Origin: an archaeon
Lineage (GTDB): Archaea; Iainarchaeota; Iainarchaeia; Iainarchaeales; JAAZKV01
Direction: 5' to 3'
Assembly (NCBI GenBank): GCA_036170245.1
Contig: JAVHOV010000026.1
Location: 16,377-33,516, forward strand
Length of the DNA stretch: 17,140 nt
Of the stretch, positions 1-13,752 are shown one piece after another. Both the position numbers and the translations under genes were made by a program. How positions within the stretch are numbered: the first letter of the stretch is position 1; every line of letters begins with the position of its first letter. Below the pieces are notes generated by a model. The model worked only from the letters and a program-made list of their open reading frames with translations. It did no database searches and was not told the DNA's origin.

Positions 1-2909
1 GTGCGTACATCCACAACCTATCAAACCATTCTTCTAATGGCGCTCTCGTTTCTACAACTTGGTTTTTCACAAGGTCTCGAAATAGATTAATTATTTTTAG
101 GGATGGCTTCGTGCTTAGATGCATTCAGCTCTTATCCACTACAGCGTAGCTACCCAGCATTGCCTTGTCAGACAACTGGCACACCAGAGGCTGCGACGCT
201 ATGTTCCTCTCGTACTCGTAGCATCTTCCCCTCAATTAATCAACAACTCCAACAGATAGTATCCAAACTGGCTCGCACCGTTCTTAACCCAACTAACGTA
301 CGGCTTTAATGAGTAAACCCCTCCACCCTTGGCTGCTCATGCACAGCCAGGATGCCATGAGACGACGGCGAGGTAGCAAACCGCGAGGTCGATGTGAACT
401 CTTACTCGCGACAACTCAATTACTCCCAGGATAGGTTCATTGTAAGACTAGGGCCCTATTAAGAGGCGCACTAGCGTTCGCTAGACCCAAGTTTCCTTCC
501 AGCGTTTTATGCCATTAAAAACACTGTTAAGCCTGCTTATGCTCTTGCACTCTACGTCGAATTTCTGACTCGACTGAGCAGACCTTTGGGCGCTCCTGAT
601 ATCTTTTCAGGAGCGTGCCGCCCCAGCCAAACTACCCACCAAATGCTGTCCCCGAAAAAGGTAAGCAGTATGTTTTCATGAGGATGGTGTTACATTGTTG
701 CATCCGTAGCTCCTGACGAAACTACTTCGATTGCTCCCATCTACACTGTACGCATAAAACCATACCACAACATCAGGCTGTAGTAAACTTCCGTGGGGTC
801 TTCTCTTCCCGTTGGAATTCCGCAGCATATACACAGCGAAGTATGTTCATTCGGCTTAACCTAGGGACAGTAGGAATCTCGTTACTTCATTGGTGCAAGC
901 CGCCAATAAAACGGCAAGGTATTACGCTACCGTGAGAGCCTCAGAGTTAGGCCCGCTCTTCACAAGGGCTTAGATCCGTTGAAACAGATTTTAACCTACT
1001 TGCAGTGAGCAGAAGTCAGTCTCTATACAAACCATTGCTGGCTAGCAGAGACCTGTGTTTTTGTTAAACAGTCGGACTCCTCTTGTTATTGAAACCTGCA
1101 ATCTACATTGCAGGCACCACTTATACCGAAGATACGTGGCTAATATGCCGAGTTCCCTTAGGTTTAATTCCCCGAATACGCCTTAGCTTTTTCTGCCAGG
1201 GGCACTCTTCCTAGTTCTTGGTACGGTTTTCTAGAATCATATACTCTCTTTTTTCATGGACGCCAGGCCTCGCTAAAACATTGCTGCTCGTCCAAGTTTG
1301 TTCACCTTCTCGCCATTACAGCTCTCCGGAGAACTATCCTTGTTGAATCACACGACGGTGTGACAACAGCTAGCCCAATATGTCAAAAGAATATATATCG
1401 TTGCCGAACTTATCTAGAAAGTACGCGACTATGAACGCGTTTCCCTTTCCTGTGCGCCCTATTATGGGCACAGTTAGGACCGACTAACTCTTAGCTTATG
1501 ATAAGCGCTAAGAAACCCTGGCCCTTTCGGCGGAGGTGATTCTCACACCTCTATCGTTACTACTAATGCAAGGATCCATATCGCGAAAAGCTCCATTCGT
1601 ACTTACGTACAAACTTCTAAGCCATCCGCGCACCTACTTACAAAGATTCTTTCTAACTGAAAAAATTTCTACGTATCGGCAGTTGGTTTTAGCCCCGATA
1701 ATCTTCGCTGCCAGTAGCCTAGGTGGGTGAGCTGTTACGCTTTCTTTGAAGGATGGCTGCTTCTAAGCCTACCTCCCCACTGTTTTAGGATACTGACTAG
1801 CTTTACTAACACTTAACCAACATTTAAGGGCCTTAACGTAGAGCTGGGTTCTTACCCTTACGGATGCAAACCTTACGCCTGCACCCCTACTCCCGACTTC
1901 TGCGATGAATATAAATTCGGAGTTTGGGAAAAAAGTCAATCCTTTCGAATCGATACTTCTTAACCAGTATCTCTACATCATATTCCATCTCCATCGAAGC
2001 AACCCTCAGAGGTTTTTCAGCAGGAGCCTGCTATCACCAGATTCGGTTCGCTTATTACGCCTAGTCCCAAATCACCCAAGAAGATAGACTATCACTGGTT
2101 GCGGCCCTCCACCCCCCTCAAAGAGGGCTTCGGCCTGTTAAGGACTAGCTCATCTGGTTTCAGGTCTGGTCGCAGTGACTAACGCTATGAACGCAACACC
2201 TGATCGCTCGAAGCGACTGCGTGTTCTCGGTTTCCCTACGGATGCCCCCTTGAAAAGGGTTATCCTCGCCACTACAACAAATTCCCTTGCTCGTGCTTCA
2301 CGACGTACGACCCGACGCTGAAATAAATTATATACACAACCTCACGATTGTTTCTATAACTTACCTTTCCTTTCACGCCGAGCCTCGCCCGTAACCAGGT
2401 AGTTTCAGGTGCTTTTAAGCTCCTATTAAGGATACTTTTCAACTTTCCCTCGCGGTACTAGTACTCTATCGGTCTAGAGACATATTTAGGGTTGGAAGTC
2501 AATCCTCCCATATTCCCGCGCACTATCCAATGCACGGTACTCTCTCATTAGCAATCAAGTTTTTTTACTTCAAATACGAGACTATCACTCTCTATGGTGC
2601 TGCTTTCCAACAGACTTCTCTTCATAAAAAAACTAGTGCACTAACACCACAATTCCACATCTTTACAGAATAGGATTCAGTGCGCCCTGTTCCAATTTCG
2701 CTCGCCGCTAATTTCGGAATCCCTATTTGGTTTCTTTTCCTTCCGGTACTGAGATGATTCAATTCCCGGAGTTCCTCTTCATTACTGAATTATTCAGGCA
2801 TCTTTGGTTCAAAACCCGCATGCGGCTCGCCAAAGCTTATCGCAGCTTGCCACGCCCTTATTCAGTGCTCTAGCCTAGTCATCCACTACCTGGCGTAACG
2901 TTGCCTACT
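1..2909 (-). rRNA. rrl: 23S rRNA, archaeal type; 3' end truncated by the window edge, 5' end approximate
   Basis: Reverse complement contains the sarcin-ricin loop AGUACGAGAGGA (~206-217), P-loop CUGGGGCGG (~618-626), H69 loop UAACUCUGA, GAAGACCC with archaeal G2058, and the 5' motif GUGGAUG (2880-2886). 5' end was extrapolated from E. coli G24 = position 2886. Confidence 0.97.
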
Positions 2910-3202
2910 AACCAACGAGGGTATGAAGCACACGATTGTGTGGCCCTCGTTGGTAAAAAAGACTAAGTATTCGCTATGATATACATGACAAATCCTATGC
3001 AACAATTAATTCTGAACCAACTTTCGCTGATTCATTCCTAATTGCTTTGCCTTCCATCAGGAAAAAACTCCCGATGGGAACAATATCAATTGTAATCACA
3101 GATGTTACTCTGCAACTGCAAATTTGCTATCATCTTTCGATGATAACCTTAGTAAAACCGAAGTTTTACTAATTCGTCGAAAACTTTTACATTTCCGACA
3201 AG
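2910..3202 (-). other. tRNA-Ala to 23S internal transcribed spacer with several stem-loops
   Basis: Inverted repeats: ACCAACGAGGG/CCCTCGTTGGT (2911-2954), 3052-3080, 3128-3145 (GAAA loop on the transcript), 3149-3172 (C-UUCG-G loop), 3175-3200. Confidence 0.8.
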
Positions 3203-3275
3203 TGGACTCTGAGGGAGTCGAACCCTCGACCTCTCGCGTGCAAGGCGAGCGCTCTACCAACTGAGCTAAAAGCCC
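3203..3275 (-). tRNA. tRNA-Ala (anticodon UGC), intronless, CCA not encoded
   Basis: Cloverleaf GGGCTTT-TA-GCTC AGTTGGTA GAGC-G-CTCGC CT TGC AC GCGAG-AGGTC-GAGGG TTCGACT CCCTC-AGAGTCC-A, with the G3:U70 Ala identity pair and A73 discriminator. Typical position in an archaeal 16S-23S spacer. Confidence 0.98.
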
Positions 3276-3633: not shown

Positions 3634-5119
<1,486 letters not shown>

Positions 5120-11968: not shown

Positions 11969-13752
11969 TTATTTCTTTATTATCCCAGTTTTCTGCAATT
12001 TCCATAGTGAGGCATATATTCCTTTCTTCTTTGAGAGCTCCCTGTGGGTTCCTATTTGTTCCACAGTTCCTTTTTTCATTACAATTATCTTATCAGCATT
12101 CATTATAGTACTCAATCTATGTGCAATAATTATAGTTGTTCTACCCTTCATTAATTTTTCAAGCGAAAGCCTGATTTCATATTCAGTTTTTGAATCAAGA
12201 GAACTAGTTGCCTCATCAAGAATGAGTATTTTTTTGTCAGCTAAAACTGCACGAGCAATACTCAATCTTTGTTTTTCTCCGCCAGAAAGCTTTATCCCCC
12301 TCTCTCCAACAACAGTATTTTCTTTTAAGGGCAAACTATTTACAAACTCAAACAATTGAGCCACTTTTAGAGCGTTAAATACTTCCTCTCGCGTAGCACT
12401 CGGATTTGAAAATAAAACATTGTTGTAAATAGTGTCATTGAACAAAACACACTCTTGGGGAACAATACTCAATTCATTTCGCAAAGATTCCTGAGTAACT
12501 GTATTAATATTTTTTCCATCAATTAAAATTTCTCCTTCTTGAGGTTCATATAACCGGTAAAGCAATTTTACAATAGTTGTTTTTCCGCCCCTGAATGACC
12601 TACAAAAGCAACTTTTTCATAAGGTAAAACAGTCAAATTTAAATTTTGAATTATTTTTTTCTTATTAGTATATCCAAAATTTACTCCTCTAAATTCTATT
12701 TTACCTTCTTTAACACTCAACTTTTTAGCATCAATTTTATCTTTAATTTCAGACTCAGTTTTCTTGTATTTCACTACAGCATCAAGGTCAGCTAATCCTT
12801 CATATAATCTCCTTACCCCCCAAAAGAATTCATATAATGGAAGAGTCAGACCAATGTAACTGGTATAAATAAAAACAACTGAACCCATTGTCAAGTCACT
12901 CGCCAAAAACCGAATAATTGTAAAATACATTATAGCAATTGTCCCAAATCCAATTATCATAACGTGCCCTGCTTCAGTAGTATTATAATAATTCCAAAAC
13001 TTCAACCACTTTTGGGAAGTCACAACAGATATTTTATCAAACAGCTCTTTCATTCTATTTTCTTTTCCAAAGTTTTTTACAGTTTCAATATTTGTAAAAG
13101 TATCGCTAATAAATGCTTTTTCATAATCTTCCTGTTCATTCTTTTTTACATTTGCTTCCTGCTGTTTCTTTAGTAGAATTACACTATATATCATGAAAAT
13201 TAAAGCCATTCCTACAACAACAATCGCAGAACTAATATCAAAAAAAGCAATTACAATAAAACCAATTACAAGTTTTATAATCAAGGGCCCGCCGTGAAAA
13301 GTAAAAAAATCAGTTAAACTTTCAACACTCTTCCCACTTCTAATTAACCTTGAAATCAAACTTCCTGTTCTATTTGAAGCATGAAATCTGTGAGAGAGTT
13401 CAATTAAATGATCAAAAATATCTTTTTTGATATCCTTCATCATATCTACTTCAAGCTTGTTTAGAAACAATAATCTTAGGTAACGTAAAATTCCAGCAAC
13501 TAAAACAGTAAGGAAAAATACAATTCCTAAATTGATTGCAATTTGTACAAAAGCATCTTTTGTAATTTTTAGAGCAGCAAAATCAGTTCCTGAATCAATT
13601 ATAAGTTTGTAAATATAATTTTGGCCGAATTCAATTAAGTAACCAAAAGTGATTAAACTCATTACAAAAATGAACATTACCCAATAAGGTTTAGCAATTT
13701 TGAAGTAATACTTCAAATCATCCATTATGTTATTTTCTACTACTTTAGCCAT
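11969..13752 (-). pseudogene. ABC exporter half-transporter (TMD plus NBD; MsbA/Atm1-like) split by a 1-nt deletion in Walker A; real lesion or sequencing error
   Basis: ORF 12568-13752 (TMD) ends 'GHSGAEKQLL*'. The -1 frame continues 'GKTTIVKLLYRLY...VPQE...LSGGEKQR...ILDEATSSLD...IAHRLST'. One added base restores a 594-aa protein. Confidence 0.88.

Follow-up and report, generated by a model that had tools for sequence, protein, structure and literature searches.

The stretch analysed here (the window) is 17,140 nucleotides of contig JAVHOV010000026.1 (positions 16,377 to 33,516) from a DPANN archaeon of the Iainarchaeota, and its minus strand carries a ribosomal RNA (rRNA) operon in the archaeal layout 16S-tRNA-Ala-23S. 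The 23S rRNA gene fills positions 1-2910 (minus strand), matches the Rfam model RF02540 (LSU_rRNA_archaea) at 2396.4 bits against a cut-off of 50, and continues for 64 nucleotides beyond the window start in the contig, the full length scoring 2436.5 bits. A sequence-only reading of the window had described the peptidyl transferase centre (PTC) of this rRNA as hyper-divergent, with 11 covarying substitutions around an intact catalytic core. We find that the substitutions are present, that the first shell of the active site is kept, and that the divergent PTC is the inherited norm of a whole archaeal order, probably the Iainarchaeales (about 100 species-level genomes), with the window's genus as the extreme. 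The features concerned are listed below; rRNA positions follow Escherichia coli numbering throughout.

1-2910, minus strand: 23S rRNA gene, 5' 2910 nucleotides (RF02540; the full gene is contig 16313-19286)
417-424, minus strand: PTC central-loop strand, E. coli 2447-2454, reading AGUAAUUG against GAUAACAG in E. coli; A2450 and A2451 kept
362-372, minus strand: E. coli 2499-2509, reading CUCGCCGUCGU, with A2503C, U2504C and G2509U; C2499, U2500, C2501, G2505 and U2506 kept
283-298, minus strand: E. coli 2573-2588, with G2576U, C2579U (U.U with 2509) and U2586A; C2573 and G2583-U2585 kept
260-273, minus strand: 3' strand and loop of helix 93 (H93), E. coli 2598-2611, with A2600C (pairing with G2593), U2609A and A2611; A2602 kept
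310-324, minus strand: A-loop hairpin, helix 92 (H92), E. coli 2547-2561, with U2552G (319), C2556U (315) and C2551-G2557 replaced by G.A (320/314); G2553 kept
798-804, minus strand: E. coli 2057-2063, reading AGAAGAC, with A2057 and G2058 as in many archaea; G2061, A2062 and C2063 kept
621-623, minus strand: P-loop G2251-G2253, unchanged
203-216, minus strand: sarcin-ricin loop, reading AGUACGAGAGGAAC, unchanged
3202-3275, minus strand: tRNA-Ala(UGC) in the 16S-23S spacer, found by Rfam (3203-3275) and ARAGORN
3634-5119, minus strand: 16S rRNA gene of the same operon as the 23S gene (RF01959, 1302 bits)

Each base was checked in three ways, by Infernal alignment to LSU_rRNA_archaea, by MAFFT alignment with E. 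coli 23S rRNA and in the plus-strand letters themselves, and all three agree. The rule that window position equals 2871 minus the E. coli number holds over 255-440, and every one of the 11 substitutions is there: G2447A (424), A2448G (423), C2452U (419), A2453U (418), A2503C (368), U2504C (367), G2509U (362), G2576U (295), C2579U (292), U2586A (285) and U2609A (262). The same comparisons confirm A2611 (260) and A2057, which lies at 804, where the offset differs from that rule. The core reported as intact is so (A2450, A2451, G2505, U2506, G2583-U2585, A2602, G2061-C2063, the P-loop and the sarcin-ricin loop), and G2553 and C2573 are also unchanged. Missing from the earlier account were A2600C and the A-loop changes U2552G, C2556U and the G.A closing pair. 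Judged against the Rfam structure line, the stems behave as had been described: G2515-C2569, G2516-C2568 and G2593-C2600 are double changes relative to the archaeal consensus with pairing kept, A2067-U2443 and G2073-C2436 do pair, and U2509/U2579 is a non-standard pair, flagged as such in the Rfam-model alignment.

Set beside the canonical archaeal PTC (the Rfam consensus and the Haloarcula marismortui 50S subunit), the window rRNA has the same length and secondary structure, with no insertions or deletions across 2440-2620, and an identical first shell, P loop, G2553 and sarcin-ricin loop. It differs from the Rfam consensus at 2447, 2448, 2452, 2453, 2503, 2504, 2509, 2551, 2552, 2556, 2557, 2576, 2579, 2586 and 2600. 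Two hydrogen-bonded contacts of H. marismortui that the consulted text of PMC4652758 describes, U2504-C2452 and C2499-A2453, are impossible as such with the bases found here. The full-length match, the first-shell nucleotides, the P loop, G2553, the sarcin-ricin loop and the operon context all place the gene among archaeal large-subunit rRNAs.

The gene appears to be the only one of its kind in its genome. The assembly holds 866,866 bases in 43 contigs and is 86% complete, and a search of the whole 867 kb gave one RF02540 match and no second 23S gene; two relatives with single-contig genomes (G026 and G039) likewise have one 23S match apiece. Outside the assembly, the stretch was found in 20 sequencing runs of 15 studies, with 7 of the runs recorded as RNA and with sample labels of groundwater, lake, freshwater and wastewater. 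Four of the 20 are groundwater DNA runs of one study and possibly the source of the assembly: one of them (X1) carries the stretch identically, and X1 and the three other runs of that study contain all sampled words. We compared contigs from X1 and from three RNA-library runs of separate studies (X6, X7 and X11). X6 contigs cover 150-412 with 0 differences, and further RNA-library contigs cover 158-397, 384-767 and 387-851 with 2-5 differences each. These fall outside the PTC stretches (for example at 235, 508, 509 and 518), with the sole exception of position 315, where part of X7 has T for A, the A2556 state of relatives. Contigs of all three RNA-library runs have the divergent bases.

The distribution of the changes was followed in a phylum set of 215 genomes, in which the PTC stretch was present in 117 (109 assembled without short pieces); three rows misaligned at 2447-2454 (G016, G025 and G039) were dropped from the counts. 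Across the order, 2448 is G in 93 of 93 genomes, 2503 is C or U in 96 of 96, 2576 is U in 93 of 96, 2504 is C in 74 of 96, and the A-loop pair 2551/2557 is G.A in 97 of 97. Other sites are mixed. The combination 2452/2504 reads U/C in 41 genomes, C/C in 31, C/U in 21 and U/U in 1, and 2509/2579 is U.U in 59, G.U in 25 and G-C in 13 of 97; G2552 occurs in 27 of 97 genomes and A2447 in 6 of 93, all of the window's genus. Of the 11 states, genomes of the genus have 10-11 (7 rows), other members of the family 9-10 (3 rows) and the remainder of the order 3-10, with a median of 8 (86 rows); in the class's other orders, near-canonical except for A2448G, the count is 1-4 (9 genomes). Same-genus genomes, 97-99% identical, have the same states. 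The nearest relative (G008) shares 98% identity with the window genome across the tree columns but has G at 2447 in place of A; this position therefore flipped within the genus (2 changes on the tree). The 23S rRNAs of G039 and G025, of the same order, are about 90-100 nucleotides longer (3061 and 3074), and the misalignment of their PTC fragments at 2447-2454 suggests an insertion near the fragment 5' end. Order-wide conservation, the sole 23S match, the same bases in RNA-library contigs and an invariant first shell together support the earlier suggestion of a working rRNA, which is probably functional.

A FastTree tree of 654 columns, built after the PTC columns had been taken out (109 of 117 rows kept; many weak forks), shows how unevenly these positions have moved. 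Over the 94 rows of the order, the minimum number of changes is 14 at 2452, 12 at both 2509 and 2586, 10 at 2609 and 9 at 2453, then 5 at 2552, 4 at both 2504 and 2579, 2 at both 2503 and 2447 and 1 at 2576, with none at 2448, 2451, 2505, 2506, 2551, 2557, 2585 and 2602. Repeated changes at sites such as 2452 and 2509, with none in the first shell, mean that the second shell keeps changing and the first shell does not. The claim that the substitutions covary survives in part. Compensation within stems stands, and 41 of the 42 order genomes with U2452 also have C2504, as do all 5 such Thermoproteota, a pattern that suggests that C2504 arose before U2452. However, the U2452/U2504 combination is present in three other phyla, and independent contrasts, with too few informative pairs and hence underpowered, gave a median p of 1 for 2452/2504, 1 for 2509/2579 and 0.5 for 2552/2556.

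Comparison with an even sample of other archaea (30 Thermoplasmatota, 29 Thermoproteota, 30 Nanoarchaeota and 28 Micrarchaeota sequences, with one unpublished genome left out) places the set in context, as each of the 11 substitutions is seen in these other phyla. Thermoproteota have G2447A (12/29), C2452U (5/29), U2504C (13/29) and U2609A (21/29). Thermoplasmatota have C2452U (5/26), A2453U (25/26) and G2509U (20/30), the last mostly with A2579 as partner (19/29). Micrarchaeota have A2448G (27/28) and A2503C (12/28), and Nanoarchaeota A2448G (7/30) and G2576U (7/30). The outgroup maximum is 8 of the 11 states, in one Thermoproteota genome, and two Thermoproteota carry an identical GGGAGUAAUUG. 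Compared with the window, other DPANN phyla and Methanomassiliicoccales share A2503C, A2448G, G2576U, the H92 G.A pair and U2552G/A, but reach at most 5 of the 11 states, and Micrarchaeota instead have G2505A with C2507G. G2505A, at a first-shell position usually treated as universal, occurs in 19 of the 28 sampled Micrarchaeota, usually with C2507G and an altered 2582 (2507/2582 is G/C in 7 and G/A in 8); the string CGAUAUGGGC shows that it is no alignment slip. In one Thermoproteota locus (L300), an insertion of about 600 nucleotides with a long open stretch lies within the 23S A-loop hairpin region and resembles an intron that carries a homing-endonuclease gene. More widely, 185,579 species genomes were scanned for non-A2503 in a conserved context; this yielded at least 120 stretches, and at least 42 of the 80 listed are 23S genes. 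Four loci titled as bacterial (L024, Desulfonema; L056, Clostridiales; L092, 'bacterium'; L097, Vogelbacteria) carry a 23S PTC of archaeal DPANN or Methanomassiliicoccales type, that of L092 being of the Iainarchaeota-order type; these contigs are probably mis-binned.

The same comparison does not uphold the description of the PTC as hyper-divergent. As baseline we took the 414 columns of the 3' half of the rRNA in which 58 sequences from Thermoplasmatota and Thermoproteota show conservation of 95% or more. At 42 of them the window departs from the conserved base (6 of 45 columns in the PTC set and 36 of 369 elsewhere), which is no excess over the rest of the 3' half and leaves PTC-specific hyper-divergence unsupported. 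Ten of the 11 positions originally noted fall below 95% conservation in this archaeal baseline; G2576U, U2552G, C2556U, G2557A and A2600C, on the other hand, do fall in strongly conserved columns. The stem of helix 69 in the window 23S rRNA has G1910C and C1920G, which resemble a paired swap, and A1928C and other changes (1968 and 1973 among the positions noted) lie at columns with conservation of 95% or more in each of the four outgroup phyla; divergence therefore extends outside the PTC.

Two possible partners of the altered PTC were considered. A link between U2552G and loss of the Um2552 methyltransferase did not emerge, with no correlation across the 215 genomes of the phylum. In the window genome nothing exceeded the PF01728 (FtsJ) cut-off of 24.1 bits (best 19.4 and 18.5), and matches across the 215 Iainarchaeota genomes are mostly marginal, at 25-35 bits; clear matches above 50 bits occur in a U2552 genome (G060) and in G2552 genomes (G047 and, in family f32, G181, G184, G188, G189 and G193). 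Ribosomal protein uL3, aligned to archaeal uL3 only, is gapless across the conserved GPWHP finger, and this PTC finger shows no striking change in the window genome relative to relatives with near-canonical PTCs. The uL3 of a genome titled Methanomassiliicoccus (L373 in G215) reads GPKRPG where nine other archaeal uL3s aligned read GPW(H/T)P or SPSKP; it is without the tryptophan-histidine finger that adjoins the PTC, and the 23S rRNA of the same genome has A2503C.

Natural variation of this kind has been described recently. The main text of Nissley et al. (bioRxiv 10.1101/2024.11.12.623245) reports PTC variation in Thermoprotei and Methanomethylicia at up to six positions (within 2447-2453 and 2500-2504), and presents a structure of the Pyrobaculum calidifontis ribosome in which base triples and water networks are re-formed. 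It argues that changes at 2453, 2500 and 2504 are tolerated because the uL3 loop is shorter in archaea, and cites inactivation of the E. coli ribosome by A2453C, U2500C and U2504C. Our order resembles these clades in several ways: clade-wide changes at supposedly universal second-shell positions in the same two stretches, catalytic nucleotides kept, G2447A, an altered 2453 and U2504C in common, and an idea of drug resistance attached to both. The differences are the lineage (Iainarchaeota, within DPANN), the run labels, which are groundwater, lake, freshwater and wastewater rather than hot springs, and the extent, with up to six positions in the published clades and 11 plus the A loop here. 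Relative to those clades as the main text describes them, A2503C, G2576U, U2509.U2579, U2586A, U2552G/C2556U and the H92 G.A pair are additional. DPANN, Iainarchae, Micrarchae, 2503 and 2576 are not mentioned in the main text of that preprint, whose figure and supplementary alignments (3,686 archaeal species) may include the clade, and our search for literature on the PTC of DPANN or Iainarchaeota found none, PMC8561730 giving 23S merely as a genome statistic. The earlier suggestion that the combination may be undescribed can thus be kept for the clade and for positions 2503 and 2576, as far as that main text goes, but not for the kind of variation.

We consider it very probable that the window encodes the native, single-copy 23S rRNA of a small-genome Iainarchaeota lineage in which the first shell has been kept and an alternative second shell and A-site cleft have been inherited, having been built stepwise. 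A2448G, common to the whole class, would have come first, followed by A2503C/U, G2576U, U2586A/G and the A-loop G.A closing pair, common to nearly the whole order. U2504C and C2579U, then G2509U and C2452U, would account for what large parts of the order have in common, U2552G with C2556U for the family and G2447A for the genus only. By analogy with P. calidifontis, the changed bases may rebuild the network of hydrogen bonds and water around 2447/2451 and 2452/2453/2499/2500/2504, and such a network would hold the invariant catalytic nucleotides where other ribosomes have them; the short archaeal uL3 loop would leave space for the altered shell. Constraint on the changed positions is weaker or of another kind across Archaea, and within the order they have flipped again and again. 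Poor binding of A-site-cleft drugs would be a plausible by-product. The window rRNA thus extends recently described natural variation and is no unique rebuilt ribosome.

Several points weigh against this account. The Pyrobaculum structure has U2500C and C2501A, both canonical in the window rRNA, and is without A2503C, G2576U and the U.U pair, so that the analogy covers part of the set. Family f3 keeps U2504 and yet is the sister of the window's family (support 91); with this placement and the weak forks of the tree, some steps may be parallel gains or reversals. The comparison outside the assembly used run contigs rather than raw reads, an RNA library may contain DNA, and depth pools relatives at least 93% alike; expression of the divergent 23S rRNA is accordingly likely, not proven, as presence in RNA libraries is not expression level. 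An extra operon may conceivably lie in the missing part of the 86%-complete genome. Activity, structure and drug response of the clade's ribosomes are all matters that we infer.

Three other explanations deserve weighing. It is highly improbable that the contig is chimeric or mis-assembled, or that it carries a contaminant rRNA or a decaying extra copy, the real rRNA being canonical and unassembled. Ribosomal RNA operons are often mis-binned, as the four bacterial-titled contigs with archaeal-type 23S illustrate, and the genome is incomplete, but the stretch recurs identically in DNA run X1 (a possible source of the assembly) and nearly so in RNA-library contigs of three separate studies, same-genus genomes at 97-99% identity agree in their states, and the operon is complete, with helices that pair and functional loops intact. 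Drift in a reduced-genome symbiont, which would have fixed mildly harmful PTC changes, partly offset later, and left a slower or less accurate ribosome, is harder to set aside, and we regard it as possible though doubtful. The 867-kb genome fits it, as do the 42 of 414 conserved columns changed throughout the 3' half, the passage of the 2509/2579 G-C pair to a U.U mismatch through a G.U intermediate, and variation at these sites in the other sampled DPANN phyla, such as G2505A in 19 of 28 Micrarchaeota. Nearly the same state is nevertheless found in Thermoproteota, whose genomes are larger (1.3-2.0 Mb in the five with most states), the first shell is strictly kept and the stems show clean double compensations. 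Drift also overlaps the stepwise, inherited remodelling that we favour, and the claimed cost is the sole difference between them.

The remaining explanation is adaptive, with the set fixed as protection from natural PTC inhibitors (anisomycin-, chloramphenicol-, pleuromutilin- or oxazolidinone-like) that neighbours or hosts produce. In its favour, the changes sit at positions that line the A-site cleft or buttress it, unrelated phyla reach the same states, and G2576U and changes at A2503 and C2452 are known resistance mutations. The main text of Nissley et al. (bioRxiv 10.1101/2024.11.12.623245) cites resistance through G2447A (anisomycin) and U2504C (linezolid and chloramphenicol) and raises the same evasion idea for Thermoprotei, and in H. 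marismortui simulations linezolid makes its main contacts with U2504 and C2452, as the consulted text of PMC4652758 reports them. G2576U, U2504C and G2447A are the same changes at the same positions as acquired resistance mutations; here, in contrast, they are fixed in about 100 species-level genomes, combined and in a sole operon, instead of having arisen recently and singly in one copy among several. At conserved columns the remainder of the 3' half is equally diverged (36 of 369 columns against 6 of 45), as expected of general fast rRNA evolution, and a number of sites have switched in both directions within the order, unlike a fixed protective state. Archaeal ribosomes are, moreover, already insensitive to many bacterial PTC drugs, which also counts against selected evasion. 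On balance, we think this explanation unlikely.

The other genes of the window are housekeeping genes, encoding enolase, phosphoglycerate mutase, an ABC transporter, CTP synthase, a UbiA prenyltransferase and glycosyltransferases. Around 12500-12660 (minus strand), the ABC transporter is split into two open reading frames (12568-13752 and 11969-12565) by a frameshift within the Walker A motif, beside a run of A; the gene is a pseudogene, or else the homopolymer was wrongly assembled.

Nucleotides of the PTC second shell are usually treated as universal, and A2503 and U2552, both changed in the set, are presumably universally modified nucleotides. It is an attractive but speculative thought, and one we would not favour at present, that no cellular lineage noted so far has a natural PTC second shell and A-site cleft as remodelled as those of the order, and of the genus above all, which would form a second stable architecture, drug-refractory and independently reached in Thermoproteota. 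If so, the convergent 2447A/2448G/2452U/2453U/2504C state of Iainarchaeota and Thermoproteota would mark that architecture, and the shell would be refractory to several classes of PTC drug and a natural template for engineered active sites. Short of this, the findings extend archaeal PTC diversity to a new phylum, to habitats other than hot springs (as judged from run labels) and to new positions (A2503C, G2576U, the helix 90 U.U pair and U2552G), in an order that has about 100 sequenced species and brings 8-11 such changes together. These natural, mutually compatible sets of changes can serve studies of active-site epistasis, ribosome engineering and the prediction of PTC drugs effective on DPANN archaea, and they warn that 'universal conservation' as defined from E. 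coli overstates the constraint on the PTC in Archaea.

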